Of a stretch of DNA of 64,000 nt, positions 19,179 through 40,721 are shown piece after piece. Position 1 is the stretch's first letter; the number at the start of each line of letters is the position of its first letter. This DNA comes from a virus. The stretch is from positions 26,896 to 90,895 of IMG/VR virus record IMGVR_UViG_3300013126_001527. One strand, written 5' to 3'. The notes under the pieces were generated by a model. It saw only the letters and a program-made list of their open reading frames with translations, did no database searches and was not told the DNA's origin. The translations under genes were made by a program, and so were the position numbers.

Positions 19179-20201
19179 ATGTTTTTACAGCAATTATTTG
19201 AAGCAATAGATAAAAGGCATGCGGCATTCTGTTTTGGTCGTATGAATCCACCTACTATAGGCCATGCACAATTAATCAACACCGTAGCTAAAAGTGCTGC
19301 AGGTGGCGATTACTTTATCTTTACTAGCCAAAGTCATGATGCTAAGAAAAATCCCTTAGACTACAGTACAAAAGTTAAATTCCTTAAAGCCCTATTCCCA
19401 GAATCAGCAGGTCATATTGTACAAGATGCCGGTTTAAAAACTATCATACAAGTAGCGCATTGGTTGTATGCTAAAGGTTATCGTAGTGTTACCTTTGTAG
19501 CTGGTAGCGATCGCCTAGCAGACTTTAAAGAGTTGCTAGAGAAATACAACGGAGTACAAGGTCCAAATGGTTTTTATCAATTTGACGCTATTAATTTTGT
19601 TAGTAGTGGGGATCGCGATCCTGACGGAGAAGGATTGGCCGGAGTAAGTGCTAGTGCTGCACGTGCCGCTGCTAAAGCGGGTGATGAACAGGCATTTGCA
19701 CAAGCAACTGGCGCAGGCGAATTAACTAATCAACTATATCATGCTGTACGTAAAGGTATGAACGTAACTAAAGACTTAAATGAATTTGCCACGGATGGTT
19801 TCAACGGTGGTGATGACGAGGGTTTTAGTCCAGCTATAGCAAAAATGGCAGAAGAAGATGGATTTACCAAAGGTGTTGGGCTAGCTGATGTTGCTACACT
19901 AGCACGAGCGATGGCTATAAACGCTTGGGATACGCAACACGGTGGATTGTACAAACAATATTTCGCTAAAGGGTTTAAGGAAGGTCGCTCAAATAAAGTA
20001 CAGCACGACAATAAACGTTATAATCTCAACTTAACAGTAAACAAGGATGGCTCTATCAGTCAAAGCGTAGCAGAAGATGCCAGCGGCTACATTCCAAAGA
20101 ATAAACGAGAAGCCAAAGACCCACGTTGGTCAAATGCGCTCACTGTAGACGTACACCCAGATACACCTCGTAAGAACATGAAGGCACTTGGTTTGATCTA
20201 A
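19179..20201 (+). CDS. HxGH nucleotidyltransferase (cytidylyltransferase/NMNAT-like) with extra C-terminal modules
   Basis: FGRMNPPTIGH, KNPL, VAGSDR, GVSASAAR; leader MFLQQLFE; internal LNE and VAE junctions. Confidence 0.75.
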   Translation: MFLQQLFEAIDKRHAAFCFGRMNPPTIGHAQLINTVAKSAAGGDYFIFTSQSHDAKKNPLDYSTKVKFLKALFPESAGHIVQDAGLKTIIQVAHWLYAKGYRSVTFVAGSDRLADFKELLEKYNGVQGPNGFYQFDAINFVSSGDRDPDGEGLAGVSASAARAAAKAGDEQAFAQATGAGELTNQLYHAVRKGMNVTKDLNEFATDGFNGGDDEGFSPAIAKMAEEDGFTKGVGLADVATLARAMAINAWDTQHGGLYKQYFAKGFKEGRSNKVQHDNKRYNLNLTVNKDGSISQSVAEDASGYIPKNKREAKDPRWSNALTVDVHPDTPRKNMKALGLI

Positions 20202-20539
20202 TGCCGTTTGTAAATTTACAAGTAGAAGTACATTGCCAACAGCCTAACTGGGTTTCTCGTCCCCATAATTTAAAATATCAAAATCCTATATATAGAATTT
20301 ATCTAAATGGTGACTTATTTACTGAACGCACATGGATATGGGATAGTAAAAGGATCTTTATTAGCGAAGATATATGGGCTCAGTTAGGAAAAAATATATC
20401 TTATACAATCAAATTGGTTCCAGTTTTAAAGAATTCCGCTCAGGCTAAATTTAAACTAACCAATTTAGAGGTCAACGACGTTGAAGAGGTAGTATTTGAT
20501 TCTGTCAATGACTGCCAGTTAACATTTAAAATACGATAA
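20201..20539 (+). CDS. Hypothetical protein
   Basis: 112 aa, coupled. Confidence 0.6.
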   Translation: MPFVNLQVEVHCQQPNWVSRPHNLKYQNPIYRIYLNGDLFTERTWIWDSKRIFISEDIWAQLGKNISYTIKLVPVLKNSAQAKFKLTNLEVNDVEEVVFDSVNDCQLTFKIR

Positions 20540-20548
20540 ATAGATTAT

Positions 20549-20707
20549 ATGAAAATCTTTGAAGTAATTACTATTAAAGAAAATGCTAGCATAGGCTCAA
20601 CTGCTTCGGGCGGTGTTGCTACAAGCATGGGCGGCGGTGCTGGTTTTGGTACTAGTATTTTTATGCGCAGAATTCCAAAGAAAACTAAAAAGAGTAAACA
20701 AAAATGA
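20549..20707 (+). CDS. Small probable head-internal peptide (52 aa, not in ORF track)
   Basis: MKIFEVITIKE-NASIGSTASGGVATSMGGG...RRIPKKTKKSKQK; TAAATA 6 nt upstream. Confidence 0.65.
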   Translation: MKIFEVITIKENASIGSTASGGVATSMGGGAGFGTSIFMRRIPKKTKKSKQK

Positions 20708-23619: not shown

Positions 23620-23635
23620 CAATAATACGTCAATT

Positions 23636-23668
23636 AAAAAGGGCCCAATTTGGGCCCTTTTGTTTTTT
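23636..23668. terminator. Bidirectional intrinsic terminator
   Basis: AAAAAGGGCCCAA-T-TTGGGCCCTTTTGTTTTTT between convergent genes. Confidence 0.85.
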
Positions 23669-24105
23669 TAATCATCAAAATTTTCTGGTTCTATGGCTTC
23701 TTGTTGTAACTCTCTATCCAATCGTTTGAGATAGGTCTTAGCTGATGTGAGCTTTTTAAACATGCGTGTTGCCCGTTTTTTATTCAAATATAAACAGAAC
23801 ATACCACTTTCATCTTTTTTAACTTCTGCCAGAGTATCACGTTTAAATCCAATATGTACATTATACACCGGATCAGATTGTAATAGTGTGTCAAATCCAA
23901 GAAGTATGCTATCGCCTTTTTGCCCCACTTTAACTAATTTATCATCAAATACCGCACTGATGTTGGCTTTTCGCATGATTAATGCCGCAGTTCGTGGGTC
24001 TTGAACTTGTATATAACCTTGTTCATCGACCCAAAAATCTACACCTTCTTCAAATCCATTAAATGGATCTGATATAAGATCTAATAATTCGTCAATTTGT
24101 GTCAT
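23668..24105 (-). CDS. Hypothetical early protein
   Basis: ORF from ATG at 24105 (MTQIDELL) downstream of a consensus sigma70 promoter. Confidence 0.7.
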   Translation of the reverse strand: MTQIDELLDLISDPFNGFEEGVDFWVDEQGYIQVQDPRTAALIMRKANISAVFDDKLVKVGQKGDSILLGFDTLLQSDPVYNVHIGFKRDTLAEVKKDESGMFCLYLNKKRATRMFKKLTSAKTYLKRLDRELQQEAIEPENFDD

Positions 24106-24143
24106 GATGTAAAATACCCATTGAGTTGTTGATAATAGCAAAC

Positions 24144-24172
24144 ATTATACATTCAAATCTAGAGTTTGTCAA
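24144..24172 (-). promoter_or_regulatory. Consensus sigma70 promoter
   Basis: Reverse strand reads TTGACA-17-TATAAT exactly. Confidence 0.8.
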
Positions 24173-24221
24173 GTCTTTTTGTTTTGATAAATATCATATA
24201 AGCACAAGTATGGACAATATT

Positions 24222-24614
24222 ATGTTATTAACGGAATTCTTTGAAACCTCGGAGGGCAACTCGTATGCAAAGCCTACGACAGCGTCGAGCGTTAAAGAAA
24301 CTAAACGCAAAATTACAGCAAAAAATGATCCCTGCTGGAAGGGTTACCACATGGTGGGCACAAAGTCTAAAGATAGCAAAGAAGTGCCTAACTGCGTTTC
24401 GGGAGAAAAAGGGTCAATGAATGAAACAGCCGATTTGAGTCATATAATTCAAGCACGCCAATTAGCACATCAAGCCATGACAGATACTAGTAAGCGTCAT
24501 GAATATTTTGATTTTATGAAACATTTACGTGACAAACACGGTAAAGAATACAGTATAAAAATCCATCAAAATGCTACTAAATTAGACAGCATCAAAGAAA
24601 GTATCAAGGAATAA
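24222..24614 (+). CDS. Probable head-internal modular protein with CWKGY...PNCV module
   Basis: Likely start MLLTEFFE at 24222 after TAAATA; MNE and IKE junctions. Confidence 0.65.
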   Translation: MLLTEFFETSEGNSYAKPTTASSVKETKRKITAKNDPCWKGYHMVGTKSKDSKEVPNCVSGEKGSMNETADLSHIIQARQLAHQAMTDTSKRHEYFDFMKHLRDKHGKEYSIKIHQNATKLDSIKESIKE

Positions 24615-24617
24615 TAA

Positions 24618-26897
24618 ATGGCAGATTTACAATATATCTACACCGTTGACCGTCCGGGACCAAGAGCATTTACTATGCCTGATGGTTTTGAAGAAACAGT
24701 TGAAGTTCATTTATGGGGTGCAGGTGGTGGTACCGGATATGGGGGTGCACCAGGGGGTGGTGGCGGTTATGTTAAATCTACTTTAACCATACAATCTGGT
24801 GATATCATTGAAATTGGTATCGGATTACAAGGAAGCCCTGCACAAAGTGCAACCGCTGGAGGTGGTGGCGGTAATAGCGGCATTGGTTCTAGATATAGTG
24901 GCGGTATTGGCGGAGGTAGAGGTTACTGGTGCGGTAACTCAGGCGGACCGTTCCCAAGCGGTGGTGGTGGTGGGGCAACTGCCGTATTAGTCAATGGTGT
25001 TGCTCAGGCAGTGGCTGCTGGCGGTGGTGGTGGCGGTGGCTACGGCCACAGAGGTGCCAAATATGCTGGGTTACCGGGTGGTTCATATAGATCGCTCACT
25101 GGAAATACCCAAGGTGGTGCTGCAAGTTATGGTGGCGGTGGTGGTGGTGGATATCTTGGGGGTGCTGCTGGATATAGTTCAGGACATGCTGTAGTTGGTG
25201 GTAGCGGCGGACAAAATTATGGCACTACAGCAGAAGCAGGCAATGGAGCCACGGCTGGCGGTAGAAATACCATATATGCACCGGTTGCATCTTATGGTAA
25301 CTCTGGTTATCACGGATATGCTGTATTGGTGTTTACTAGAAGATTCCAAATTTTTAATAAAGATAGCAGTGAATGGAAACGTGTTTTAAATGCTTGGGTT
25401 AAGACACCGCAAGTGTTTATCCCCGTAACAGTTCCGCACACACCTCAAACAGTTACATTTTCTTCTGAAGGCACACATACATTTACAGTCCCTACTGGAA
25501 TTACGTCAATTAACGTAACTGCCATTGGTGGTGGTGGTGGTGGCGGTGGCGCTGATGGCGCCGCATCGGGCGGATATCCGGGCGGCGGATACCCTGGAAG
25601 TAAAATAGTCACAACATTATCTGTTACCCCCGGACAAACATTAACTATCGTTCCGGGCGGTGGTGGTGGCGCTGGTGTAGGTAGAGCTAGCAGTGCAAGA
25701 CCTGGTAGTGGTGGGGTTGGATATTACCCTGGTGGCCGCGGTGGGTATGCAGGACCTTCTGGTAGCTCTGGAGCAGGTGGTGGTGGCGGTGGCGCAACTG
25801 TAATCCTGTCAGGAGCTTCTCCTGTGTTGGTAGCAGGTGGTGGTGCTGGTGCAGGTGGTTCCGGTAACGGTAACTATGGAGTAGAATCCATTGGGACTTT
25901 TAATTCTAGTACCTCGGGTGCTGCAGGCCAAGACAAGTCCGGTGACGGGGGCGGTGGTGGTGGTGGCGGTGGTGGCTACCCATATGGTGGTGCTGGTGGC
26001 CCAACTCGCAGTGGGGATGCAGGAGCATATTCTGGTACAACTGGACAAAGTTTAGTGCCCGCGGGAGGACAACTAGGCACTGGATCAAACGGCGGCAGTT
26101 ATGCAAGTGGCACGGGCGGACGAGGCAGCGTAGAAATAACATATACACAACCCGATGAAACTATTTTAGTTGAAGAGGGCGGATGGAAAGGAATACAACA
26201 AATATATACAAAACACAACGGTGAGTGGAAACAACTAATTAGTACCGATACAGTAAATGATGGACGTACAGAGAAATTTCTTGTACAAGGATCGTATATA
26301 TGGACAGCACCGGATGATATTATACGTGTTAAAGTATTAGTATACGGTGCTGGCGGTAGTGGTACTGGCGGTGGTGGTGGTGCAGGCGGATATGCTGAAA
26401 AATATCTAACAGTAACTCCTGGAAGTTCGTATAGTGTCGTTGTAGGAGCAGGCGGTATAGGTAGCCAAGATGGGCAATCAAGTAGTTTTAATGCAAATAT
26501 CATAGCCTATGGAGGTTCTGCTGGTACTGCAGCAACTACAGGTACAGATGCAGGTGGTGCTGGTGGCACAGCAACAGGTGGGGACACTAACTTAACTGGT
26601 GCTGCAGGATCTGCCGGTAAGGCGATTTACCACTACTACTATTGGTGGTGGGGTTGGGGTGGTTACTGGGGTTGGGGTGGGTATAATACCTATTCCTATG
26701 GATTTGGTTCATATAACTACGGGTATAATTACAACTACTGGGGCGGTTACTGGGGTTGGGGTTGGCCTCGATCACATTATGCAGGGTATGAATACGGTGT
26801 TCCTGGTGTAGGGTATGACAGTATTGGTAGCGGAGCAGTTGGTCGTGCTGCAGATTCTCCTACTGGAGCAACTGGGGCAGTGTTTGTAATTTATTAA
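24618..26897 (+). CDS. Glycine-rich (polyglycine II) adhesin / receptor-binding protein
   Basis: Three Gly-rich domains each starting with F/W-T-x-P-x-G...V...G(A/G)GG; WK..I..K...W linkers; resembles gp38-type adhesins. Confidence 0.7.
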   Translation: MADLQYIYTVDRPGPRAFTMPDGFEETVEVHLWGAGGGTGYGGAPGGGGGYVKSTLTIQSGDIIEIGIGLQGSPAQSATAGGGGGNSGIGSRYSGGIGGGRGYWCGNSGGPFPSGGGGGATAVLVNGVAQAVAAGGGGGGGYGHRGAKYAGLPGGSYRSLTGNTQGGAASYGGGGGGGYLGGAAGYSSGHAVVGGSGGQNYGTTAEAGNGATAGGRNTIYAPVASYGNSGYHGYAVLVFTRRFQIFNKDSSEWKRVLNAWVKTPQVFIPVTVPHTPQTVTFSSEGTHTFTVPTGITSINVTAIGGGGGGGGADGAASGGYPGGGYPGSKIVTTLSVTPGQTLTIVPGGGGGAGVGRASSARPGSGGVGYYPGGRGGYAGPSGSSGAGGGGGGATVILSGASPVLVAGGGAGAGGSGNGNYGVESIGTFNSSTSGAAGQDKSGDGGGGGGGGGGYPYGGAGGPTRSGDAGAYSGTTGQSLVPAGGQLGTGSNGGSYASGTGGRGSVEITYTQPDETILVEEGGWKGIQQIYTKHNGEWKQLISTDTVNDGRTEKFLVQGSYIWTAPDDIIRVKVLVYGAGGSGTGGGGGAGGYAEKYLTVTPGSSYSVVVGAGGIGSQDGQSSSFNANIIAYGGSAGTAATTGTDAGGAGGTATGGDTNLTGAAGSAGKAIYHYYYWWWGWGGYWGWGGYNTYSYGFGSYNYGYNYNYWGGYWGWGWPRSHYAGYEYGVPGVGYDSIGSGAVGRAADSPTGATGAVFVIY

Positions 26898-26919
26898 AAT
26901 TTTTTAAAAGGTGATTTCA

Positions 26920-27723
26920 ATGAAACGTGTATTATCAATCTTATTACTATTAGTATCGGCGCAGGCCTGGGCATGGACACAGACACCTCCCAAACCTCTA
27001 GCAAGTTGTTCAGCAGAAGCTCCATATGGTTTTCCTATTGCAAGCAAAGCAGGATTGGCACAATGTCGATTGGCATTTGCCACAGTATATGACCCAGCAA
27101 GTAAGTTGCCCATGTGGACAACATGGACTATTACACCAACTGAGGCAATAGGATGTATTCCTCGTACTAACGCATTTGTAGCAGATGAAAGTTTACCAAA
27201 AGATCAACGGGCCACTCCAGACGATTATGCAGGAACAGGGTACGACAAGGGGCATGTAGCCCCCGATGGTGATTTGAGTTTTGACCAGCAGGTAGAATAC
27301 GAAAGTTTCTTAATGACCAATATGATGCCACAAAGCGGTGGATTAAATCGAGGAATTTGGAAACTGTTAGAAACCTATACCAGAGGTTATGCTGTGCAAC
27401 GTAATACTACTGTTACAATTTATGCAGGTCCAATTTACAGTATGAGTAACCCAACCATCGGTAAAAACAAAGTAGTTGTTCCGCACGCTTTTTACAAAAT
27501 ATTAATTGACAACAAAACTAAAGAAGTTCTAGCATTTATATTCCCGCACAAAGGCGGTCAAGGTAATAATCTAGATGTAGCATTGAGCACAGTTACAGAA
27601 ATTGAAAGACAAACTGGTATAAAATTTCCTCTACCCCAAGGTGCAGTATTAAATAAAAAGACTAAGGATTTTCCGGTAGACTTTGGTGCGTTAACCAACG
27701 CCAAACGAGCTAAATGTAAATAA
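26920..27723 (+). CDS. Secreted sugar-non-specific (NucA/EndoG-type) nuclease
   Basis: Signal peptide ending AQAWA; DKGH active-site motif; TNMMPQ, LNRGIW. Confidence 0.88.
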   Translation: MKRVLSILLLLVSAQAWAWTQTPPKPLASCSAEAPYGFPIASKAGLAQCRLAFATVYDPASKLPMWTTWTITPTEAIGCIPRTNAFVADESLPKDQRATPDDYAGTGYDKGHVAPDGDLSFDQQVEYESFLMTNMMPQSGGLNRGIWKLLETYTRGYAVQRNTTVTIYAGPIYSMSNPTIGKNKVVVPHAFYKILIDNKTKEVLAFIFPHKGGQGNNLDVALSTVTEIERQTGIKFPLPQGAVLNKKTKDFPVDFGALTNAKRAKCK

Positions 27724-27738
27724 TCAAGGACAACTAAA

Positions 27739-28188
27739 ATGGTAGACGAAGTATTTGACGACGAAGTGACCACAGTTCCGCAAGAAACTGTACAAATTGA
27801 AGTTCCAGCACCTATAACTACAGCCCCATGGGGATTTCATGCTATAATGGACTGTAATAATGTTGAATTAGACAAAATTCAAAGCGAATCAAATATTAAA
27901 AATTGGCTTAGTGATTTGTTAATTAAAATTGATATGACCCCAATTGGTGATCCAATTGTTACCAAAACTGGTGTAGGTATGCCCGATAAAGAGGGATTTA
28001 CCGCAGTGCAGATTATTGTTACTAGTAACATTATAGCACATTTTATCGACCAAGATCGACACATTTACATTGATGTGTTTAGTTGTAAAGAGTTTAATCC
28101 AACTCTTGTCGAAGAATCAATTAAACAGTTTTTTGGTGCCAACACAGCAATTAAAAAAATATTATTGCCCAGAAACGCGGCTATTTGA
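27739..28188 (+). CDS. S-adenosylmethionine decarboxylase-like proenzyme
   Basis: GFTAVQIIVTSNIIAHF and YIDVFSCKEF match the class I AdoMetDC pattern. Confidence 0.7.
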   Translation: MVDEVFDDEVTTVPQETVQIEVPAPITTAPWGFHAIMDCNNVELDKIQSESNIKNWLSDLLIKIDMTPIGDPIVTKTGVGMPDKEGFTAVQIIVTSNIIAHFIDQDRHIYIDVFSCKEFNPTLVEESIKQFFGANTAIKKILLPRNAAI

Positions 28189-29292: not shown

Positions 29293-29333
29293 TTCCAATT
29301 ATTTATAACATACATTTTACGCTAAATACATAA

Positions 29334-29873
29334 ATGAAAGCACAAGAATTAATTAGAGCAACAGCAAACACCAAAATCTACTTGGACATGGATGGCGTTC
29401 TTGCTGACTTCTTTGCAGAATACGCAAAACTGGCCGGAGTTAAGTCTGGCAAATACCGAGATATTCCACCTGCTAGTCAAGACCCAACATTAAACAAGAT
29501 GGTTGGCACAGACTTTTTCTATAGATTACCAAAGTTCAGCACTGCTGACAATTTAATTCAGCTGGTCTTAAGTTATGCACCAACATACAACATTTGCAGT
29601 AGTCCCCTGCGTGGCGATCATGCTAACAGTGAGCAGTGGAAACGCGAGTGGATTAAAAAGCACTTAAGTCCGCAACCTAAAGAAATAATTATTACAGGTA
29701 TGAAAGAACGCCATGCTGTTAACGCTGGTGGCAGCCCTAATATCTTAATCGATGATCGAGGCAGTAATATTCTTAAATGGCAAGCTCGCGGAGGTATTGG
29801 TATCAAATATCAAGCAGACGAAGATAGTCTAGACAAAGTAGCAAAAGGATTAATGTTAGCATATGGTTACTAA
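29334..29873 (+). CDS. HAD-family 5'(3')-deoxyribonucleotidase-like protein
   Basis: YLDMDGVLADF, SSP, LIDDR motifs; leader MKAQELI. Confidence 0.85.
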   Translation: MKAQELIRATANTKIYLDMDGVLADFFAEYAKLAGVKSGKYRDIPPASQDPTLNKMVGTDFFYRLPKFSTADNLIQLVLSYAPTYNICSSPLRGDHANSEQWKREWIKKHLSPQPKEIIITGMKERHAVNAGGSPNILIDDRGSNILKWQARGGIGIKYQADEDSLDKVAKGLMLAYGY

Positions 29874-30597
29874 ACTATTAGAAGGTGGTAATATTTTTAA
29901 AACAGCAGATGGTCAACCTGCCACTACACGTATTGCTCGAGATAATGTTGTACCCACAGTGCAATGGTTAGAACAACTCACTGGATTAAATCTTGTAGAC
30001 AATATGCTAGGATCAACTAGTCGCAAAGAAACAAGTGGTGACTTAGACCTAGGTGTAGATAGTACTAAAATTTCTAAAGAAGTATTAATACAGCAACTAC
30101 TTCGTCAAGGTATTCCGCAGACAGATATACGTAAAACAGGTGACAGCGTGCATCTAAAAACTCCTATCTTAGGTGATCCAAGTAACGGATATGTACAAAC
30201 TGACTTTATGTTCAGCGACAACCCACAGTTCCAAAGTTTTAGCTATGCTGGCACTGGCGCAGGCGAGTTCAAAGGTGTGCATCGTAACATCTTGCTGGCC
30301 AGCATTGCCAAAGCACTAGACATGAAATGGAGCCCAAAATTTGGTTTGGTCAACCGAGAAACTAACGAAGTAATTAGCAACAATCCTCAAGAAATAGCTA
30401 AAACTTTAGTCAACGGTACTGTGCAGGATTTGGCATCAGTTGAAACTATAGTAAATAAGATAAAGAACCAAGCAAACTACGAACAACTTGTAGCAGACGC
30501 AAGGGAATATTTTGCTCGTGATAATTTAGTATTGCCAGAGTCGGCACCATTACCAGGCACCGGTGCCTGGTTTAGATTGTGGAAGGATCAACTATGA
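29863..30597 (+). CDS. Pol-beta-fold nucleotidyltransferase-like protein
   Basis: LGS...SGDLDL...VQTDFM triad; leader ending LLE-GGNIF. Confidence 0.55.
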   Translation: MVTKLLEGGNIFKTADGQPATTRIARDNVVPTVQWLEQLTGLNLVDNMLGSTSRKETSGDLDLGVDSTKISKEVLIQQLLRQGIPQTDIRKTGDSVHLKTPILGDPSNGYVQTDFMFSDNPQFQSFSYAGTGAGEFKGVHRNILLASIAKALDMKWSPKFGLVNRETNEVISNNPQEIAKTLVNGTVQDLASVETIVNKIKNQANYEQLVADAREYFARDNLVLPESAPLPGTGAWFRLWKDQL

Positions 30598-31934: not shown

Positions 31935-31935
31935 T

Positions 31936-32385
31936 ATGAGAGCTGAAGAGTTTAATACAAGCAAATTTAATTGGGCAGACTACGCTGATATGCCTACTAA
32001 AGATAAACTTGAACTAATCGAAAGTCTGTACTCGGGATCGAAAAATTTATTTGAGTCCAACGACGCTGAACAAGTTGATTATTTTTTTAATTTACGGGCC
32101 ATGTCTGATCCTGTTGAATTAGACCAAACCTATATTGTAAACTTTCTAGGTTTAATAAACAATCGTGTTTTAACATTACAAGATCCGTTTGTAGGCAAAG
32201 TATTACAACAAGTTGAAGATCAGTTTGAGATTGAATTACCTGACGGTAGAACTGCTATGTTCCCAGACAAATCACTCAGCGATAAGATGGCTACTTCTAT
32301 GTTTTTCTTTGCTGGAAATGTATCGTACGACAAATTTAGAACAACAGTTAAATTAAAATTTAGCAAGGATTTACCAAAGATTTAA
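31936..32385 (+). CDS. Hypothetical protein with capsid-targeting-like leader
   Basis: Start MRAEEF at 31936, immediately after the previous stop. Confidence 0.65.
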   Translation: MRAEEFNTSKFNWADYADMPTKDKLELIESLYSGSKNLFESNDAEQVDYFFNLRAMSDPVELDQTYIVNFLGLINNRVLTLQDPFVGKVLQQVEDQFEIELPDGRTAMFPDKSLSDKMATSMFFFAGNVSYDKFRTTVKLKFSKDLPKI

Positions 32386-32387
32386 AG

Positions 32388-32465
32388 AACACCACCTTAG
32401 GACCTGTTATTCGTAACGGTACGGTGTTGGCGGCTGCTGCCATGGAGGGATGCCAAAAGTGAGCA
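32388..32465 (+). ncRNA. Candidate structured RNA, family unknown
   Basis: GC-rich intergenic segment: AACACC/GGTGTT outer stem, ACC-GTTA-TTCG-TAAC-GGT inner hairpin, TGGCGG/CTGCCA hairpin. Confidence 0.45.
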
Positions 32466-32474
32466 CAGGATATT

Positions 32475-33641
32475 ATGAGAGCACGTGATTTTATTAAAGA
32501 ACTAAGACGAAATCCAGAACAAAATGTTCGCGTGTCTGGTTGGGATCAATTTGTTCAAATATACAATCAACACAAACAACAAGGCAACCCCAGCAACTTA
32601 TATATCAGCCTAACTGAATTAGAAAAGTTGGGCATTAATCCATTAAGTGAACACGAAACACCAAATGGTGTTTATGCTTATCCTGCAGACTATGTAATCA
32701 AAACTAAAAGTTTTGAGGACTTGCCCTATGCTGGTGATCAAAAATGGGTAAATGTGTTTACAGTTACTCCAGAAGCTAATATTCTTAAAGTTGATACCGT
32801 GGGTTCAGATGAAGTTAAAGAATACTTAAAACGATTAGTCACTGCATACCCAGAACGAGCAGATGAAATTAAACAATTTGCTAAATCAGCTCCTAAGGAA
32901 GCATTTGCCAACGATGGATGGGATGATATTCCTAATCGCAAAAAACTCAAAAAACTGCCTGGTGCTCAACTATGGTATATAACCTTTGAGTTGAGCGAAT
33001 ATGACTCCAATCTTTGGAACAAACTGTTTAGAGTTATGGGCATTGATGGCGTAGCGGATTCTGGCATGGGCATTATCCATCATATGGAACCTGTTCAAGC
33101 CGTGTTCTTTAATCCTAAGGCAATTAAGATGATTGGCAGATTCCCAAACTCTGCCGCTCCAACAGAAAAGTCTATAACTAACCGTCGCAAAGAAGGGCAA
33201 CAGCAAACTCAGACTAAACGAAATCTTAACTCAATGAGCGAACGAGATCAAATTGAGTGGATGAATAGAAACCACTACCACGAACACTTTAGATATATCA
33301 GAAACCCATCACCTAAAGTCCAAAAAGCAGCTATTAAATTAGACCCAAGAAATATTTTATGGATTAAAAATCCAAGCCCAGAGTTATTAATGTATGCTGT
33401 TAAGAAGGAACCGCATCTATTAGATCATTTCAAAAATCAAACATTTGAATTACAGATGGCTGCTATAGGTAAAGATTGGTCTAACATTGAATACTTAGAT
33501 CATCCTTTGCCGCAGACAGTTCAACAGGTTATGAGCATGATACCTCGCAAAGAGTTAGAACAACTATATCAAGATCAAATTGAATATATTGAAAACGGGT
33601 GGGGAAATCCTCCTTATTCTTGGTTACCTCCTCTTAGATAA
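32475..33641 (+). CDS. Probable head-internal protein: ADP-ribosyltransferase-like core plus helical repeats
   Basis: Leader MRARDFIKE; TPNGVYAYP; GIDGVAD.G.GIIH..EPVQAVFFNP; C-terminal I.NPSP..Q..A repeats. Confidence 0.5.
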   Translation: MRARDFIKELRRNPEQNVRVSGWDQFVQIYNQHKQQGNPSNLYISLTELEKLGINPLSEHETPNGVYAYPADYVIKTKSFEDLPYAGDQKWVNVFTVTPEANILKVDTVGSDEVKEYLKRLVTAYPERADEIKQFAKSAPKEAFANDGWDDIPNRKKLKKLPGAQLWYITFELSEYDSNLWNKLFRVMGIDGVADSGMGIIHHMEPVQAVFFNPKAIKMIGRFPNSAAPTEKSITNRRKEGQQQTQTKRNLNSMSERDQIEWMNRNHYHEHFRYIRNPSPKVQKAAIKLDPRNILWIKNPSPELLMYAVKKEPHLLDHFKNQTFELQMAAIGKDWSNIEYLDHPLPQTVQQVMSMIPRKELEQLYQDQIEYIENGWGNPPYSWLPPLR

Positions 33642-33650
33642 ATACTAATT

Positions 33651-36581
33651 ATGCGATACGAACAAATCAAACCCCTATTAGACGAAGCTGTACTTGACGA
33701 AGTCAAGATGAGCCCTAGTGCTCTACAAAAATTTGCCAACAGTCCAGAAGCAGAAGGTATGCTTATGGGTATAGAATTTGAAATGTGCGTGCCAAATGTT
33801 GCTGTAGATGACGACAGTGGCGACGGCGAATATGACTATGACATGGACGAACGTTGTTACAGCATAGATGATATTATAGAATTCTTCCGTAACGGTGAAA
33901 TGTCAAACTTAGGTTCCAGCAGTGCTCAACGCCTACGCGAAAAGATGTGGGACGAATACCTAGACTGGACTAGTGATAAAATTGCAGACAATCTAGACAC
34001 AGACGAATTGAATGAACGTGTTCGTAATCGTTTACGTGATGACATAGACTGGGAAGATTACGTTGATGATGCTCGTGAAGAACTAGGCGACGAAGTTCCT
34101 GACGATAAAGTAGAAGAACGGGCTAAAGAACTAGCAGAAGAAGCATTAGATAATGAAATGAGTGATGCTAGTAGTCGCAACTACCAATATTACTACGACG
34201 AAATACGCCAAGAGATGGAAGATGAAATGCGTGAAGATGCGGACTACGATCAAGAAGCGTGGTTGCGTGACATTGGCGTAGATTACATGAGCGACGCAGA
34301 ACGTGAATGGAGCTTAGATTGGCCACACTGGAGTTACTATGGTAGCGACGGTGAAATGGATGTAGAAAGTGTAGGTGACGAGTTTGGTCGTAGTATGGGC
34401 TTAGAATACGTAAACACATCAAACAACTACCACGGTGCTCGTCGTGATGGTAAAAACTGGATTGTAGAGCCAGATAGTTCAATTGACGCAGATTCAGGCG
34501 ATGGTGGTTTAGAGTTTGTTAGTCCTCCTATGCCAATCAAAGACGGTTTAGAAATGCTACAAAAAATGTACAAGTGGGCCAAGGATAACGGTTGTTATAC
34601 TAACAAGTCAACTGGCCTACACATGAACATTAGCGTTCCAGATATGACCATTGAAAAACTGGACTATGTTAAACTAGCCCTGTTCATGGGCGACGAACAT
34701 GTGCTTAAACAGTTTGGTCGTCAATATAACAGCTATGCTAAGAGTGCTATGAGTAAGATTAAGGACCGTATTCGTCCAGAAGATGTTCCGCACGTACTAG
34801 CACAAATGAAGCAACACCTAAACAGTCTAGCCAGTAAAACCATACACAGTGGTATTACAGACAAATACACTAGTATCAACACCAAAGACAACTATGTAGA
34901 ATTCCGCGGCCCAGGTGGCGACTACTTGGATATGAATCCATTTGAGGTTACTAACACAGTCCTACGTCTGGCTATGAGCCTGCGTATTGCTACCAATCCA
35001 GAAGCATACAAACAAGAGTATGCTAAGAAACTATACAAATTAGTAGAACAAGACGGTGACTGGACTGACCCCAATAACTCAGTGGCTCTATTCAGTCGTT
35101 ATGCTCTAGGCGAAATTAACAAAGACGAATTAGTCAGTAATGTACGTCAGGCACAGGTAGCACGTAAAGAGAAGAAAGGCGAAGAACTACAGTTCTGGGT
35201 CATGAACAAAGACGGCACGGGCGGCAAGCAGTTAGTGTTTGCTCAAAGTGAAACAGAAGCCATTATCAAAGGTGGCAAGCAGATGGGCATGAACCGTGAG
35301 AAGAGTATTAGCACGCTCAAAGCTGAGGTAAAATCTGCGCCTATTGATTTAGAAGGCATGAGCAAGGAAGAGTACTATCGTCAGGTCAACGATTTACCTA
35401 CATACACATTAGAACAATTTGTCAATGAGATTAAAAAACGAGAACTCAGTACATTAGAAAAAGCTCTAGACACTGTTAAGAATCGTAGCATGAGTGGCGA
35501 CTTAAGTGCTACTAACTACGAGTTCCTACAGGCAGTTATTGAGCGTGAAATTGCTCGTCGCAGTCTACCAGTTGATGACGGTGAGATGACACAGTGGAGA
35601 GTACATATTACTCAAGGACCACACGCAGGTGTATCTACAATTATCAACGCACCAACACCACGTAATGCCAAGGTAGCGGCACAGGCTATATTCCGTAGTC
35701 AATTAAATGACGCATTTATAGATTACGACTATTTAGAAGCAAGAGAATATACTTTAGCAAGTAGATTACAAGTAGGTACACCAGAACCAGCAAATGCTCA
35801 AGAAATATACGACAGTTTACCTAACACTTATAAAGCATGGTTAGATGGGTTAGAAGCAGGCGAATCCAGTGTAATACAAACTGTAATAGACAGTGTTGCC
35901 AACGATACAGGGGCAAATGCTCAGGCATTAAACATAGAACAACGTGATTTAATTATCAGTAGAGCGCAGGCAGAACTACGTCGTCGTGGGCAAGCAACTC
36001 AAAGTAGCGAAGAAGAAATGACCCGCCCATGGCACGTATGGTTAGCAAATATACAGGATCATACAGATGATCAACTGCGTAATGCTCGACATGTCATGGC
36101 AGTTGGCCGAAATGAACCAGGTGCTCGTGGTGCTAGACTAACTGATCGTCAACGTCAGGCTATTGTAGATGAGATTGATGATGAGTTCCGCCGCAGATTA
36201 GCTAGAAGTATTGAACGCGGTGAACAAGCTCGTGCGGCACAGCAAGGTGATATTATAGCACCAGGACTAGGCGAGGTGGACCCGTTGGCGGCACAACAAG
36301 CAGAATTAATCAACCGTGATGATCCTGTTACATCAAACGATCCTGAAGCTGATAGTCCATTAGAGGTGCCAGGACAAGGTACGCAAGAGTTTCAGATTGT
36401 AAATCCACACACAGGATCTATTGTAGCAGTAATACGTCAGGCTACCCTAGATCACGCTGTAAGTAAAGCACGTCAATGGGAACAAGACCTAGGCTTATCA
36501 GCAGGTGACTTAGAAGTTCGTCAAATTGGCGAAACTAACGAAAGTATTAATCAATTACGCAAATTAGCAGGCATTAAATAA
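33651..36581 (+). CDS. Amidoligase (COOH-NH2 ligase superfamily) with acidic insert and C-terminal repeats
   Basis: GIEFE, DSSI, GLEFVSPP, TGLHMNIS, KYTSIN, VEFRGPGG; C-terminal LRKLAGIK. Confidence 0.75.
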   Translation: MRYEQIKPLLDEAVLDEVKMSPSALQKFANSPEAEGMLMGIEFEMCVPNVAVDDDSGDGEYDYDMDERCYSIDDIIEFFRNGEMSNLGSSSAQRLREKMWDEYLDWTSDKIADNLDTDELNERVRNRLRDDIDWEDYVDDAREELGDEVPDDKVEERAKELAEEALDNEMSDASSRNYQYYYDEIRQEMEDEMREDADYDQEAWLRDIGVDYMSDAEREWSLDWPHWSYYGSDGEMDVESVGDEFGRSMGLEYVNTSNNYHGARRDGKNWIVEPDSSIDADSGDGGLEFVSPPMPIKDGLEMLQKMYKWAKDNGCYTNKSTGLHMNISVPDMTIEKLDYVKLALFMGDEHVLKQFGRQYNSYAKSAMSKIKDRIRPEDVPHVLAQMKQHLNSLASKTIHSGITDKYTSINTKDNYVEFRGPGGDYLDMNPFEVTNTVLRLAMSLRIATNPEAYKQEYAKKLYKLVEQDGDWTDPNNSVALFSRYALGEINKDELVSNVRQAQVARKEKKGEELQFWVMNKDGTGGKQLVFAQSETEAIIKGGKQMGMNREKSISTLKAEVKSAPIDLEGMSKEEYYRQVNDLPTYTLEQFVNEIKKRELSTLEKALDTVKNRSMSGDLSATNYEFLQAVIEREIARRSLPVDDGEMTQWRVHITQGPHAGVSTIINAPTPRNAKVAAQAIFRSQLNDAFIDYDYLEAREYTLASRLQVGTPEPANAQEIYDSLPNTYKAWLDGLEAGESSVIQTVIDSVANDTGANAQALNIEQRDLIISRAQAELRRRGQATQSSEEEMTRPWHVWLANIQDHTDDQLRNARHVMAVGRNEPGARGARLTDRQRQAIVDEIDDEFRRRLARSIERGEQARAAQQGDIIAPGLGEVDPLAAQQAELINRDDPVTSNDPEADSPLEVPGQGTQEFQIVNPHTGSIVAVIRQATLDHAVSKARQWEQDLGLSAGDLEVRQIGETNESINQLRKLAGIK

Positions 36582-38329
36582 TGGCAAATACATTTTTAAG
36601 AAAAGTAAGCAGTAACGTTAGCACTGTAGAAACAGCCATTGGTAACTATACCGTTGGATCTAATGTTGGTGCGGTAGTAGTTGGTTTAAGTATTTCTAAT
36701 ACCAATTTATCCCAAGTTTATGCAAATGTTCTTATTAGTAATGGTATTACCGGACATCACATCATTAAAAATGGTACTATACCTGCACAGGGTGCGTTAA
36801 TAGTAGTTGGTGGAAGCCAAAAAATTATCCTACAAGAAGGGGATAGTATACAAGTATCTGCAACTGCAAATGTTGATGCAATTATGAATATCATGGAGAC
36901 TGATTCCATTGGAGTGAGTACTGATCCCGTTAGTTACTCCGTGACTGCAAACGTAAATGGAGTCAATGAAAATCAAGCCATTGGATATACTATCTCTACA
37001 CAAAATATAGCCAACAGCACAACATTATATTGGCAGTTAATTGGAAACGTAGTAGCTGCAGATTTCAGTGACAGTGTGACGTCTGGGATCGTTACTATTA
37101 GTAATAGTAGTGCAACTGTAGTGCGTCCGCTATACGAAGATTTGACCACAGAAGGCCCAGAGTGGGTACAACTGAAAGTGTACACTGATGCATCTTATGT
37201 AAATTTAGTTGCTAGTTCAGGTAACGTAACAGTTACAGATTCATCAACCAACCCACCACCATTGACTGAAGCTTATTATGCTGGTGCTTATTTCCCAGGA
37301 ATAACATCTAGCACTCCGGCCAATTCACAGAAAAATTCTTTTACACTATTGTCAAACATAGCTACAATATCTGCTAACGTAGGTGCATCAAGTGCTAGCT
37401 CTTATCATTTCACTTATATTAAAGACGATGATCAGTCATGGCGATACTATGCTCCAAACGGGCTAACCATCGGTACCACTGGCAATTATACTGTAGTGCA
37501 AGTTGGTTCCGGAACCTGGGACTATGTACATGTAGCATTTGATAGCGGACATATGTTTGGCATTAACACATCGGGAGAGTTGTATGCCTGCGGAGACAAC
37601 AATAACGGTCAATTGGGGCTTGGTGATACTACTAATAGAAATTACTCATCTGTCGCTAAAGTAGGTTCAGCAACTAACTGGACCAAAGTATGTGGAGCAA
37701 AATACGCTTCAATAGGGCTACGCAGCGATGGCACAATCTGGACGTGGGGTTTAAATTCAGGAGACCAAGCTGGACAATTAGGTGTTGGGGGTTCAACTGA
37801 CGTGACATCTCCAACTCAGGTAGGATCAGCGACCCATTGGGTTGATATCGCAGCTGCACCTAGTTACGGTACAGTATTCTATGCTCTTAAAAACGATGGT
37901 ACGTTATGGTATTGGGGAGATGCTAGTTATGGTGGCGGCCTAGGTCAAGGTGATATATTAGTTACTACACCTACACAAATTGGTAGTGCATCTAACTGGG
38001 CAAAAATTTATGGATCATACAGAAGTCTACGTGCTATTAAAACCAATGGTACATTATGGGGCGGATACAATGCAAGTAGCCCTTATGGCGGTTCATTCCA
38101 GCAAGTAGGTTCGGATACAGATTGGTCTATCACTGCTGGAGCAACATTCAATTGGCACGCTATTAAAACCAACGGAACCTTGTGGGCAATAAGCGTTTAT
38201 AACTTCTACGGGGCAGCAGGTACAGGCAATACCACTGATGTTCTAACTCCAACACAAATAGGCAGCGACACCAATTGGCGCAATCTTGCTCCAACTAGTC
38301 AATACTATGGCACTGTAGCTATTAAATAA
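36581..38329 (+). CDS. RCC1-repeat beta-propeller protein with virion-type N-terminal and Calx-like domains
   Basis: Repeats G.LW.WG.N..GQLG.G....P.Q(V/I)GS..W. Confidence 0.85.
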   Translation: MANTFLRKVSSNVSTVETAIGNYTVGSNVGAVVVGLSISNTNLSQVYANVLISNGITGHHIIKNGTIPAQGALIVVGGSQKIILQEGDSIQVSATANVDAIMNIMETDSIGVSTDPVSYSVTANVNGVNENQAIGYTISTQNIANSTTLYWQLIGNVVAADFSDSVTSGIVTISNSSATVVRPLYEDLTTEGPEWVQLKVYTDASYVNLVASSGNVTVTDSSTNPPPLTEAYYAGAYFPGITSSTPANSQKNSFTLLSNIATISANVGASSASSYHFTYIKDDDQSWRYYAPNGLTIGTTGNYTVVQVGSGTWDYVHVAFDSGHMFGINTSGELYACGDNNNGQLGLGDTTNRNYSSVAKVGSATNWTKVCGAKYASIGLRSDGTIWTWGLNSGDQAGQLGVGGSTDVTSPTQVGSATHWVDIAAAPSYGTVFYALKNDGTLWYWGDASYGGGLGQGDILVTTPTQIGSASNWAKIYGSYRSLRAIKTNGTLWGGYNASSPYGGSFQQVGSDTDWSITAGATFNWHAIKTNGTLWAISVYNFYGAAGTGNTTDVLTPTQIGSDTNWRNLAPTSQYYGTVAIK

Positions 38330-38337
38330 ATACTATC

Positions 38338-39540
38338 ATGAACTTATACGAAATGTTTGAACCTCAGAAAGAATTGACCTTAGTAGATGCGCTACGTGAC
38401 TTCTTGCCATTAGCTATGTTAGAACTAAATATCACTACATTGCCAAAAATAACATTTCAAAAAGATATACAATCTATAGAGCATCCAACCTTTGGACGTT
38501 TTACCAATGAAGGCAATTTAATCTATGTAGATATTGAAAATCGCCATCCCAACGATATATTACGCACGTTGGCGCATGAACTAACACACTTTGCACAGAA
38601 TGAACGTGGCGAATTAGATCAGCATAGTGGGGACACTGGTAGTAATGCTGAAAATGAAGCTAATGCAGTAGCTGGTGTAATCATGCGCAATTTTAATGCA
38701 GAATATCCGCAATATTTAAAATTAGCTCCAGTAACATTTAATAATCAAATAAACGAAAAACGTAAGCGCAAACAAAAACGTCAAACTGGTTACTACGGAT
38801 ACTATTGGGGCGGAGTTAACTACGCCGACCAATCAGGTGATGGCGGTAGCGATGGTGGCGAGAGTGTACAAGAAGGCATAGGTAATTCTGCCCTAGTGGG
38901 CGCATTAGCTGCTGCATTATCAATGTCACCAAATGCTGCCAATGCAGAGTCATCCGACGCAGCAAATGCCTTGCGTATCTATAGAACTATCCATCAGTAT
39001 AAGAATTACGATGATGCAGCATTTAAAGCAGAAGCACAACAAGAACTAATGAATATTCTACGCACGTTACAAGGGCACCCAAACCAAAGTCAAATTTTGT
39101 CCATTGTTAAAAAAATGGCTGACTCAGAAGAAACAACTACCGAGTTACCCCCATTAACTAACGAGCCTGTTAACGAAAAGTGGAGTGAAAAATACAAACG
39201 CAGTATTGACTGCTCCAATCCCAAAGGATTTAGTCAACGTGCGCACTGTCAAGGTCGTAAAAAGTCCAACGAAGGTACTTGTGAAACTCATAAGAGTCCT
39301 AGCGGACGCATGACTAATATGTGCCCAGACGATGACGACTATGAGATAAACTATGGCAAGCAAGCCAATGAAAATTTTGCCGACGGTAAAAAGCCAGGAC
39401 GTAAAGGACTTGCTAAACGCAGTGGTGTGAATTGTACACAGTCAGTGACGAAATTGAGAAGCATCGCTAAGAATTCCAGCGGTGAAAAGCAACGTATGGC
39501 ACACTGGTGTGCAAATATGAAATCAGGAAAAGCAAAATGA
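38338..39540 (+). CDS. Zincin metallopeptidase-like domain fused to a string of small modules
   Basis: LRTLAHELTH...ENEANA; modules separated by INE, VQE, VNE, SNE and ANE. Confidence 0.7.
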   Translation: MNLYEMFEPQKELTLVDALRDFLPLAMLELNITTLPKITFQKDIQSIEHPTFGRFTNEGNLIYVDIENRHPNDILRTLAHELTHFAQNERGELDQHSGDTGSNAENEANAVAGVIMRNFNAEYPQYLKLAPVTFNNQINEKRKRKQKRQTGYYGYYWGGVNYADQSGDGGSDGGESVQEGIGNSALVGALAAALSMSPNAANAESSDAANALRIYRTIHQYKNYDDAAFKAEAQQELMNILRTLQGHPNQSQILSIVKKMADSEETTTELPPLTNEPVNEKWSEKYKRSIDCSNPKGFSQRAHCQGRKKSNEGTCETHKSPSGRMTNMCPDDDDYEINYGKQANENFADGKKPGRKGLAKRSGVNCTQSVTKLRSIAKNSSGEKQRMAHWCANMKSGKAK

Positions 39541-40184
39541 AAGCTAGTGATTTTTTAAATGAAGCAAAACAACGATTAGATGCCAAGTGTTGGAAGGGCT
39601 ATCGCAAACAAGGCACCAAGATGAAAGGTGACACTCGCGTCAACAACTGTGTTAAAGTCAACGAAGAAATTGATCCAGCAGACGTAGGTGAATACGACCG
39701 CGAAGGTGAAATGGCTATCGATCAGTTGGAAACTGCTGCAGAAGCTGCTAACGAACTACGCAGTATCTTAGATGCTGATGAAAACTTACCCGAATGGGTA
39801 CAAAGTAAAATTACCAAAGCACTTGATTACTTAGACACTAGCCGTGACTACATGAAATCCAAAGGCAATAACACAGATGAAGAAACTTATGAAGGTGACG
39901 AGTTCTACGAAGCTTACGGTATTATGTGCGAAAGCCTAGAAGAAGCAGAATACCGTGGACGCAAAGTACCCTTAGGTAAACCTATGCGCGGCGATGTTAA
40001 AAAATTCAAAGTCTATGTTAAAGATCCTAAGACTGGAAATATCAAAAAAGTAAACTTTGGCGACCCTAACATGCGTATTAAGAAATCAAATCCTAAACGC
40101 AGAAAATCATTCCGTGCTCGTCATAACTGCGCTAACCCTGGTCCACGCACTAAAGCACGTTATTGGTCATGCCGTAAGTGGTAA
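39537..40184 (+). CDS. Modular probable head-internal protein
   Basis: Leader MKASDFLNE; CWKGY...NNCV module; LPEWVQSKIT module; basic KVNFGDP...RKSFRARHNC...ARYWSC module after LEE. Confidence 0.7.
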   Translation: MKASDFLNEAKQRLDAKCWKGYRKQGTKMKGDTRVNNCVKVNEEIDPADVGEYDREGEMAIDQLETAAEAANELRSILDADENLPEWVQSKITKALDYLDTSRDYMKSKGNNTDEETYEGDEFYEAYGIMCESLEEAEYRGRKVPLGKPMRGDVKKFKVYVKDPKTGNIKKVNFGDPNMRIKKSNPKRRKSFRARHNCANPGPRTKARYWSCRKW

Positions 40185-40187
40185 GTC

Positions 40188-40721
40188 ATGCGAGCCCAAG
40201 ACTTTTTAACAGAATCTAAAGAAAAACTTAAGCTAATAGATTTGCCTTATAGCCGAGCAGCTCTTGCGCCTGTAATGAGCAAAAGTACTCTAGACAATCA
40301 CTATGGTAAATTAGCTAAAGGTTATGTAGATCGATACAACAAAGGTGAAGGTGACAAGACTTTCAATGCTGCTGGTGCATACCTACACAACTTATTCTTT
40401 CCACAACTACGTGCGCCGCGTTCCAATAATAAACCAACCGGAGCAATTAAGAATTTAATAGATCGTAAGTTTGGTTCTTACGATGAATTCAAAGAAGAGA
40501 TGGTCAAAAAAGCTATGAAACTGCAAGGCAGTCATTGGATCTATCTAAGTAAAACTGGCGCTATCAAAACTATACCCAATCACCAAAAGCGTACAGATAT
40601 AGTGCTGTTGATTGACTGGTGGGAACACGCTTGGACCATTGACTATGGTGCAGATAAAGCCAAATACTTAAAAAATATCTGGCGCATAATTAATTGGGAT
40701 ATCGTAAATCAAAGGCTATGA
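40188..40721 (+). CDS. Fe/Mn superoxide dismutase with capsid-targeting-like leader
   Basis: LPY..L.P, NHYGK, HNLFF, DWWEHAW; leader MRAQDFLTE. Confidence 0.85.
   Translation: MRAQDFLTESKEKLKLIDLPYSRAALAPVMSKSTLDNHYGKLAKGYVDRYNKGEGDKTFNAAGAYLHNLFFPQLRAPRSNNKPTGAIKNLIDRKFGSYDEFKEEMVKKAMKLQGSHWIYLSKTGAIKTIPNHQKRTDIVLLIDWWEHAWTIDYGADKAKYLKNIWRIINWDIVNQRL

Follow-up and report, generated by a model that had tools for sequence, protein, structure and literature searches.

A candidate capsid-targeting leader shared by unrelated proteins in a gene island of an uncultured jumbo phage

Results

Gene island and shared N-terminal leader

The 64,000-nucleotide (nt) stretch analysed here (the window) is the final 64 kb of one 90,895-bp contig, IMG/VR record IMGVR_UViG_3300013126_001527. 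Between the genes for a ClpA-like ATPase and DNA polymerase, it carries an island (positions 19179 to 40721; Table 1) in which many open reading frames (ORFs) begin with a similar leader of 7–12 amino acids (aa) with the consensus M-[RK]-x-x-[DEQ]-[FL]-[ILF]-x-E. The original prediction, made from the sequence and its translations, had listed 12 such leaders and compared them with the capsid targeting sequence (CTS) borne by internal proteins of T4. The CTS, present on IPI, IPII, IPIII, and Alt, was reportedly described by Mullaney and Black in 1996. The start codons and N-terminal peptides of all 12 were confirmed. In T4, the first 10 residues of IPIII are enough to bring about encapsidation, the prohead protease gp21 cuts after Glu, and the T-even internal proteins have only the CTS tag in common (PMC9026906, PMC3012670).

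The contig, whose 5' end falls within a tail-fibre gene, is 26% complete (CheckV). It carries genes for DNA ligase, a clamp loader, a ClpA-like ATPase, a family-B DNA polymerase, and MetK, along with queuosine-type genes. The DNA polymerase showed 51% identity with that of Sinorhizobium phage Phosso (469 kb), 47% with that of Agrobacterium phage Atu_ph07 (490 kb), and 43–45% with those of Vibrio 2.275.O and the Rak2/GAP32/CBB group. These identities and the CheckV value indicate that the contig represents part of the genome of an uncultured jumbo phage that belongs to the T4 superfamily and is similar to Atu_ph07, Phosso, and Rak2. No capsid, portal, terminase, or protease genes were found on the contig, and a Peptidase_S77 search of it gave no match, which is expected of a fragment. 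The island likewise had no Megablast match among 50,697 phage records.

The strict form of the leader, M[RK]A..[FL][ILFV].E, occurred at four of the 127 ORF starts of the contig (30594, 32475, 39537, and 40188), which lie within 10 kb of one another, and was absent from the other ORF starts and from all internal windows of the proteins encoded on the contig. The codons of these four leaders vary synonymously (AGA/CGA, GCA/GCC/GCT, and GAT/GAC), indicating that the leader is conserved as a peptide and not as DNA. A second leader type, M-x-L-x-[EQ]-[FLM]-F-E (type B), was present at 19179, 24222, and 38338. Of two broader, post hoc patterns, R3 (^M.{1,6}[FLIMV][FLIMV].?E) matched 10 of the 21 island genes versus 3 of the 106 genes elsewhere on the contig (Fisher, P = 3.7e-7), and R4 (^M.{1,5}[DEQ][FLIM][FLIV].?E) matched 7/21 versus 0/106 (P = 1.3e-6). 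The leader observation is real and highly non-random. The claim of about 12 shared leaders held for ten, which were graded as strong (30594, 32475, 39537, 40188, 19179, 24222, and 38338) or moderate (29863, 20549, and 33651), and less well for the other two (29334 and 31936). The leader at 20704, and perhaps one at 27739, had been overlooked. Across 14 candidate leaders, P3 was I or L in nine, F or M in two, and none of these in three.

Pfam domains of known enzyme folds start at residues 15–18 of the island proteins, i.e. 5–10 residues past the leader Glu, so that the leader and a short linker are extra sequence. Residue 18 of the 19179 protein aligned to position 2 of the CTP_transf_like profile (ca. 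12 aa extra N-terminally), residue 15 of the 29334 protein to NT5C position 4, and residue 15 of the 40188 protein to position 3 of the superoxide dismutase (SOD) profile. In an AlphaFold2 (AF2) model of the 30594 protein with a predicted local distance difference test score (pLDDT) of 85.7, residues 1–8 scored below 50 and the first helix began at residue 12; the leader is the sole low-confidence segment at the N-terminus. As had been proposed, the leader ORFs are mostly unrelated otherwise, with the exception that 24222 and 39537 share a Cys-pair module and that 30594 and 32475 both match phrog_17056.

Table 1 Coordinates of the island genes and associated features. Positions are those of the window unless stated otherwise; a slash marks the end of the leader.
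Feature	Coordinates	Strand	Leader or start	Family match or remark
ClpA-like two-AAA ATPase	15368..17665	+		phrog_4871, E 3.5e-244; upstream of island, context only
HxGH nucleotidyltransferase, 340 aa	19179..20201	+	MFLQQLFE/A (type B)	Pfam CTP_transf_like
Basic peptide, 52 aa, isoelectric point 10.8	20549..20707	+	MKIFEVITIKE/N	No family match
Highly charged protein, 971 aa	20704..23619	+	MNMKSLLE/K	Absent from the original prediction
Basic protein, 130 aa, Cys-pair module CWKGY..GTK	24222..24614	+	MLLTEFFE/T	phrog_4359/9737, function unknown
AdoMet decarboxylase	27739..28188	+	MVDEVFDDE... (25-aa N-extension)	Pfam AdoMet_dc from residue 34
NT5C/HAD 5'-nucleotidase	29334..29873	+	MKAQELIRA (weak)	Pfam NT5C
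Pol-beta-type nucleotidyltransferase-like protein, 244 aa	29863..30597	+	MVTKLLE/GGNIF	Homologue of Atu_ph07 virion gp65
Unknown-fold protein, 446 aa	30594..31934	+	MRARQFILE/Y (type A)	110 homologues
Acidic protein, 149 aa	31936..32385	+	MRAEEFNTS (weak)	No family match
388-aa protein, putative ADP-ribosyltransferase (ART)-like N-domain and DUF4116-like helical repeats	32475..33641	+	MRARDFIKE/LRRNPE	
Amidoligase, 976 aa	33651..36581	+	MRYEQIKPLLDE/A	Pfam Amidoligase_2
400-aa mosaic, HExxH metallopeptidase module and basic Cys-pair modules	38338..39540	+	MNLYEMFE/P	
Basic two-module protein, 215 aa	39537..40184	+	MKASDFLNE/A (type A)	
Fe/Mn superoxide dismutase	40188..40721	+	MRAQDFLTE/S (type A)	Both Pfam SOD domains
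Close ATAAATAC boxes	20537-20551, 29321-29336, 33639-33653, 38327-38340; also upstream of 10227 in related contig G001			
Array of 11 paralogues, gp53-gp63, of Atu_ph07	MF403008.1 39484-50592			

Leaders in related contigs and homologues

Three related IMG/VR contigs, G001 (115 kb), G002 (66 kb), and G003, were compared with the contig. The island beside the DNA polymerase gene was also leader-rich in G001 and G002 (MRATEFIIE, MRAKQFILE, MRARHFIIE, MRAKEFIVKE, MKAEEIIVNE, MKINEILNE, MIAIELFE, MLALDLFE, and MILLEGGNVF), with R4 counts of 9/125 in G001 (P = 4e-6) and 7/96 in G002 (P = 3e-6). The gene content of the island differed among the contig, G001, and G002, and the place syntenic to the island in Phosso had no leaders.

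The leader was also retained among homologues of individual island proteins. Homologues were located on contigs of 206–356 kb. The form MRA[RK][QED]F[IL]x(x)EY was kept in 110 homologues of the 30594 protein, and MRAxEFLTESKE or MR[ED][LI]IxLxE in most of the best 120 homologues of the 40188 SOD. In the family of the 32475 protein, a Glu directly precedes a conserved xRRNPE box in 69 of 71 homologues, the other two having Asp. When the 60 distinct leaders of this family, 5–14 aa in length, were aligned at the Glu, P1 was E in 60/60, P2 was variable, P3 was I, L, or V in 85%, and P1' was Ala in 74%; one of them, MKQTFLEFLAE/A, nearly equals the T4 sequence. This alignment indicates that in the 32475 family the gp21 consensus is placed exactly at the junction of leader and domain. 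Similarly, a putative mature start GGN[IV]F was kept behind varying leaders, namely MVTKLLE/ (29863), MILLE/ (G001), and MRFAEILKE/ (G003).

Leader proteins in the virion of Atu_ph07

The published virion proteome of Atu_ph07 comprises 140 proteins detected by electrospray ionisation tandem mass spectrometry (Table S5 of PMC6102473). We mapped Table S5 to the Atu_ph07 ORFs by molecular weight and gene order, and key cases were checked against the accession order. Eighteen of the 21 Atu_ph07 ORFs starting with ^M[RK]..[DEQ][LFIM].{1,2}E were in the virion, versus a baseline of 132/852 (Fisher, P = 8e-13), and when the gp53-64 paralogue array was counted once, the virion still contained the products of 8 of 11 leader ORFs (P = 2e-5 to 1e-4). 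The virion leaders included those of gp43 (MRLIDLLES), gp53-63 (M[RK]W.QL.E or MRLFQLLE), gp381, gp408, gp482 (MRWNDLLEN), gp548 (MRLSEILEE), gp561 (MRLIDLLED), and gp672 (MRLIDLLEH). The small protein gp199 (MKLTELFNPLTE), encoded after the portal gene, was also in the virion.

Three island proteins are similar to Atu_ph07 virion proteins. The 33651 amidoligase is related to gp196 (E 3e-30), encoded two genes from the portal gene, and the 29863 protein to gp65 (E 8e-16), while the C-terminal repeats of the 32475 protein resemble gp394. The Atu_ph07 paper mentions neither internal proteins nor the coincidence of leader and virion location (PMC6102473).

Head genes of relatives and comparison with T4

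G001 carries both the island and a head module in T4 gene order on one contig. The module consists of the portal gene, a gene for a 74-aa protein starting MNILEFFE in the gp67 slot, one for a 283-aa protein starting MNKYEQLIE in the gp68 slot, a Peptidase_S77/phrog_207 prohead protease gene, a gene for a 363-aa protein starting MLDAIKPLLD in the gp22 slot, and the gene for the major capsid protein, which starts MTTQLLEG. The IKPLLD of the 33651 leader recurs at the N-terminus of the gp22-slot protein. The products of tail and baseplate genes of the contig and G001 start MA... without a leader, and the fibre genes also lack one. A Peptidase_S77 prohead protease is encoded by G001, Phosso, and Atu_ph07 (gp204 in the last), and RaK2 gp092 is another (PMC3622015). 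The gp21-like protease that the original prediction had proposed to look for is therefore present in relatives but absent from the contig, which holds ca. 26% of the genome; the absence of protease and head genes is accounted for by the contig being a fragment.

The N-termini of T4 (NC_000866) were used for comparison: MKTYQEFIAE/A in IPII and IPIII, MKTFKEFTST...ITE/A in IPI, MELITELFDE in Alt, MAKINELLRE/S in gp24, MNEPQLLIE/T in gp21, and MLKEQLIAE in gp22. When R4 was applied to all T4 ORFs as a positive control, it gave 11 matches, of which six were known prohead-core proteins or gp21 substrates (IPII, IPIII, gp21, gp22, gp24, and Alt) and a seventh was gp2, the DNA end protector. By sequence, the island leaders share with the CTS a short N-terminal propeptide ahead of the fold, an (I/L)-x-E end, and likeness to the T4 peptides themselves. 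In addition, bubblegrams of the capsids of 121Q, a related phage, are typical of DNA-embedded internal proteins (PMC7247149). As a separate observation, a 54-aa ORF on the minus strand of T4 (NC_000866 18966-19130) starts MKTFKEFIKE, close to the IPI leader MKTFKEFTST, and may encode an unrecognised CTS-bearing protein.

Proteins encoded by the island

The identities proposed for the HxGH nucleotidyltransferase (19179), the amidoligase (33651), and the SOD (40188) were confirmed by Pfam; in the last, Sod_Fe_N scored 43.3 bits (cut-off 27) and Sod_Fe_C 85.8 bits (cut-off 20.9), which identifies it as a superoxide dismutase. The other enzymes that had been named as cargo were borne out in part. 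The HAD nucleotidase (29334) is NT5C by Pfam, but its leader is weak (its G001 orthologue starts MRASELVKIK) and its Atu_ph07 homologue was not among the proteins mapped to the virion list. The assignment of the 29863 protein as a pol-beta nucleotidyltransferase is based on a G-S...D-L-D-L motif and a language-model lead to NTP_transf_2. The 38338 metallopeptidase has an HExxH motif, but its Pfam DUF6782 and M78 matches were under the cut-off. No function could be assigned from Pfam and PHROGs to the products of 20201, 20549, 20704, 23668, 31936, 30594, and 29863.

The ART-like protein of the original prediction was taken to be that of 32475, which has no Pfam match. In its AF2 model (pLDDT 91), the C-terminal half consists of helical repeats. 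In the PDB, the N-domain best matched a pre-ejectosome chain of cyanophage A4 (153 residues aligned with Z 8.1, root mean square deviation 4.2, and 12% identity), which appears to be gp27, judging from its residue numbering to ~1605 and the gp27 Cys1715 cited in the paper. The next matches were, consistently, the ART-fold toxins MbcT (Z 5.3), ParT (4.9), RES (4.6), and diphtheria toxin (4.4), over ca. 115–125 residues. The fold match is moderate (Z 4–5), and the label 'ART-like' is thus reasonable but unproven. The 30594 model gave no convincing fold match in the PDB, with a best E of 1.1 by Foldseek and a best Z of 5.5 by VIA-wide.

The 38338 and 39537 proteins are mosaics. In G001, the modules of the 38338 protein occur as separate ORFs, of which two out of three start with a leader, and the C-module of the 39537 protein corresponds to a 141-aa G001 protein with its own leader, MKINEILNE. 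This arrangement suggests that the 38338 and 39537 proteins are fused precursors in this phage. The possibility that the island proteins are polyproteins cut at many sites was also considered; fusion and splitting of modules between relatives does fit this idea, but it gets no support from internal [ILV]-x-E-[ASGT] sites, whose density in the island proteins is not distinctive. A basic two-Cys module (CWKGY..GTK....V.NCV; PHROGs 4359 and 9737) recurs in the leader proteins of 24222-24614 and 39537-40184. The central part of the 20704 protein is 46% identical to a 685-aa G002 protein starting MIVTDLFTE. The G001 orthologue of the AdoMet decarboxylase begins at residue 26 of the 27739 protein, i.e. 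without the acidic 25-residue N-extension (MVDEVFDDEVTTV...), which may be a leader gained recently.

A DNA/RNA non-specific endonuclease is also encoded in the island (window 26920-27723); it bears a classical signal peptide (MKRVLSILLLLVSAQAWA) and is predicted to be exported and not packaged via the leader route. The corresponding place in G001 is occupied by a 244-aa ORF with a signal-peptide-like start (MKLLLIALMLFTSQVFAY) that gave no BLAST match to the 26920 nuclease.

Sequences upstream of the island genes

The original prediction held that most leader genes follow a TAAATA late box or are coupled to a gene that does. This was confirmed in part: six genes have a box at most 30 nt upstream, and the rest adjoin or overlap the gene before them, with the exception of 32475, which is preceded by an 89-nt spacer. 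An ATAAATA-type box lies at -28 of 19179, and TAAATA lies 6 nt before the ATG of 20549. In the contig and G001, the ATAAATAC box is located at -27 to -35 of structural genes with a Shine-Dalgarno sequence in between; ahead of several island genes, it is only 5–6 nt from the ATG, and the preceding gene has its stop codon in the TAA of the box (Table 1). The T4 late promoter is TATAAATA, which resembles the ATAAATAC box. The boxes fit late expression of the island genes, and the mRNAs would be nearly leaderless if the box is a late promoter. Among the leader genes, only 32475 is preceded by a long non-coding gap, the GC-rich 89-nt spacer (window 32388-32465), and an Rfam search of 18000-42000, including this spacer, gave no match.

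Discussion

Based on the comparative evidence and the Atu_ph07 virion proteomics, we consider it probable that the leader is a T4-type capsid targeting propeptide carried by a large set of packaged proteins. The transport and processing of these proteins would be as described below. The island would encode internal (packaged) head proteins of a jumbo myovirus of the T4 superfamily. Late in infection, the leader would dock each protein onto the scaffolding core of the prohead, and a gp21-type prohead protease would cut after the Glu of (I/L)-x-E. The mature protein would then stay in the capsid with the DNA and probably enter the host with it. In this scheme, core binding, cleavage, location in the head and not in the tail, ejection, and early enzyme function are what we infer. 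The original prediction is supported in part. Its capsid-targeting core is well supported by the motif, its clustering, the head-core genes of G001, the Glu boundary, and the enrichment in the Atu_ph07 virion, and is favoured further by the virion homologues of three island proteins, the likeness of the 32475 N-domain to a capsid-internal ejection protein of cyanophage A4, and the 121Q bubblegrams; ejection of the cargo and its action before phage transcription remain proposals.

Several observations weigh against this reading. The leader occurs together with head genes and the protease only in relatives, and the contig has neither. The patterns R3 and R4 were composed after the data had been seen, though they were replicated on G001 and G002. 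The leaders of 29334 (MKAQELIRA) and 31936 (MRAEEFNTS) lack the hydrophobic-x-E end, and the residue after the leader Glu of 38338 is Pro. Genes without a leader (a Gly-rich protein gene at 24618, the secreted nuclease gene at 26920, an RCC1 gene at 36581, and a desaturase-like gene on the opposite strand) are interspersed in the island, which is therefore not purely cargo. In Atu_ph07, the leader MRWxQLxE differs in detail from those of the island, and gp65 is in virions yet annotated without a leader. Table S5 gives coverage only, and cleavage is not discussed in the paper; the mass spectrometry was of whole virions, heads and tails together (PMC6102473).

Since the Atu_ph07 proteomics covers whole virions, the leader could instead be a virion-association peptide that is not cleaved, e.g. 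a retained docking helix for fibres, whiskers, or the baseplate, and Rak2-like phages do bear elaborate tail appendages (PMC5259590). This explanation seems unlikely, because the tail, baseplate, and fibre genes of the contig and G001 have no leader, whereas the gp67- and gp68-slot genes beside the protease do. Moreover, the invariant Glu, with I or L at P3 and Ala at P1', before a conserved mature N-terminus is a gp21 site, and the T4 control recovered head-core proteins.

A role other than packaging, either as a tag or degron for the ClpA-like unfoldase or as a translation-initiation feature of late, nearly leaderless mRNAs, is highly unlikely. The ClpA-like ATPase gene next to the island is conserved in the clade (PMC6102473), but a degron would not predict the presence of 18 of 21 leader proteins in mature Atu_ph07 virions. 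With the ATAAATAC box so close to the ATG of several island genes, there is no room for a Shine-Dalgarno sequence; nevertheless, the synonymous codon variation points to selection on the peptide and not on the RNA, and many leader genes, being coupled in translation, lack a box. There is, finally, hardly any chance that the similarity is functionless, left over from duplication or from recombination between neighbouring genes at a common 5' linker. The genes are clustered, modules are shuffled between ORFs, and Atu_ph07 has the gp53-64 paralogue array; however, the leader sits on unrelated folds (SOD, HxGH nucleotidyltransferase, amidoligase, and ART-like), persists in hundreds of divergent homologues, where its length varies but the Glu boundary is fixed, and remains enriched in the virion when the paralogues are counted once.

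If the leader is a T4-type targeting propeptide, the mechanism is the known one of T4; what stands out is the clade, how many cargo proteins there are and that they are largely enzymes, and a rule, apparently unreported, that predicts Atu_ph07 virion proteins. Our literature search found no paper describing such a leader for this clade and none joining 'capsid targeting' with Rak2, GAP32, or 121Q. A broader picture, to which we would give somewhat less than an even chance, is that a capsid 'zip code' is conserved from T4 to Atu_ph07- and Rak2-like jumbo phages, which would allow the packaged and injected proteome to be read off the sequence, and that this phage delivers with its DNA an enzymatic starter kit (SOD, two nucleotidyltransferases, an ART-like protein, an amidoligase, a metallopeptidase, and small basic Cys-pair peptides), with some of the cargo made as fused multi-module precursors cut by the prohead protease.

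Should the targeting reading prove true, a simple sequence rule, which already picks 18 virion proteins from 21 Atu_ph07 candidates, would predict the head-packed proteins of jumbo phages of the T4 superfamily, for which proteomics phage by phage has been used until now. The cargo known so far, small DNA-binding inhibitors and a single ADP-ribosyltransferase, would be joined by whole enzymes; packaging of a superoxide dismutase or an amidoligase would be a novel way to manipulate the host or evade its defences in the first minute of infection. The leaders would also be short tags, usable as they are, for bringing foreign proteins into capsids of large capacity.

Among known systems, a capsid-internal pre-ejectosome protein of cyanophage A4, apparently gp27 (PDB 9k3a; PMC12002296), has a domain that matches the N-domain of the 32475 protein at the fold level only, and the A4 proteins differ in being giant, multidomain, channel-forming proteins without a CTS (PMC12002296). 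The inner-body or ejection proteins of phiKZ, 201phi2-1, and SPN3US provide another parallel, as these jumbo phages pack tens of proteins; their gp21-like protease cleaves a three-residue motif on the C-terminal side of Glu, and prohead targeting is the presumed role of the propeptides (PMC5694885). In those phages, however, the propeptides are mostly >100 residues and end in A/S/G-x-E (PMC5694885), whereas the island leaders have 7–12 residues with I, L, or F at P3, and none is a long propeptide of the phiKZ type. The hypervariable internal-protein loci of T-even phages resemble the island as fast-changing cargo united only by a leader (PMC3012670; PMC9026906). Unlike at those loci, the modules here are also fused or split between ORFs, and the island lies between the ClpA-like and DNA polymerase genes. 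The closest likeness is to the T4 CTS itself, as seen from MKTYQEFIAE/A and MRARDFIKE/L or from the Alt sequence MELITELFDE and MLLTEFFE/T, from the (I/L)-x-E end, from the unrelated carriers, and from a lineage with a gp21-family protease and T4-ordered head genes (PMC9026906, PMC3012670). The present system belongs to a distant jumbo-phage clade. While the T4 cargo consists of small basic proteins encoded at four scattered loci, that of the island would be mainly enzymes of up to 976 aa, encoded by at least 10 genes in one 21-kb island.

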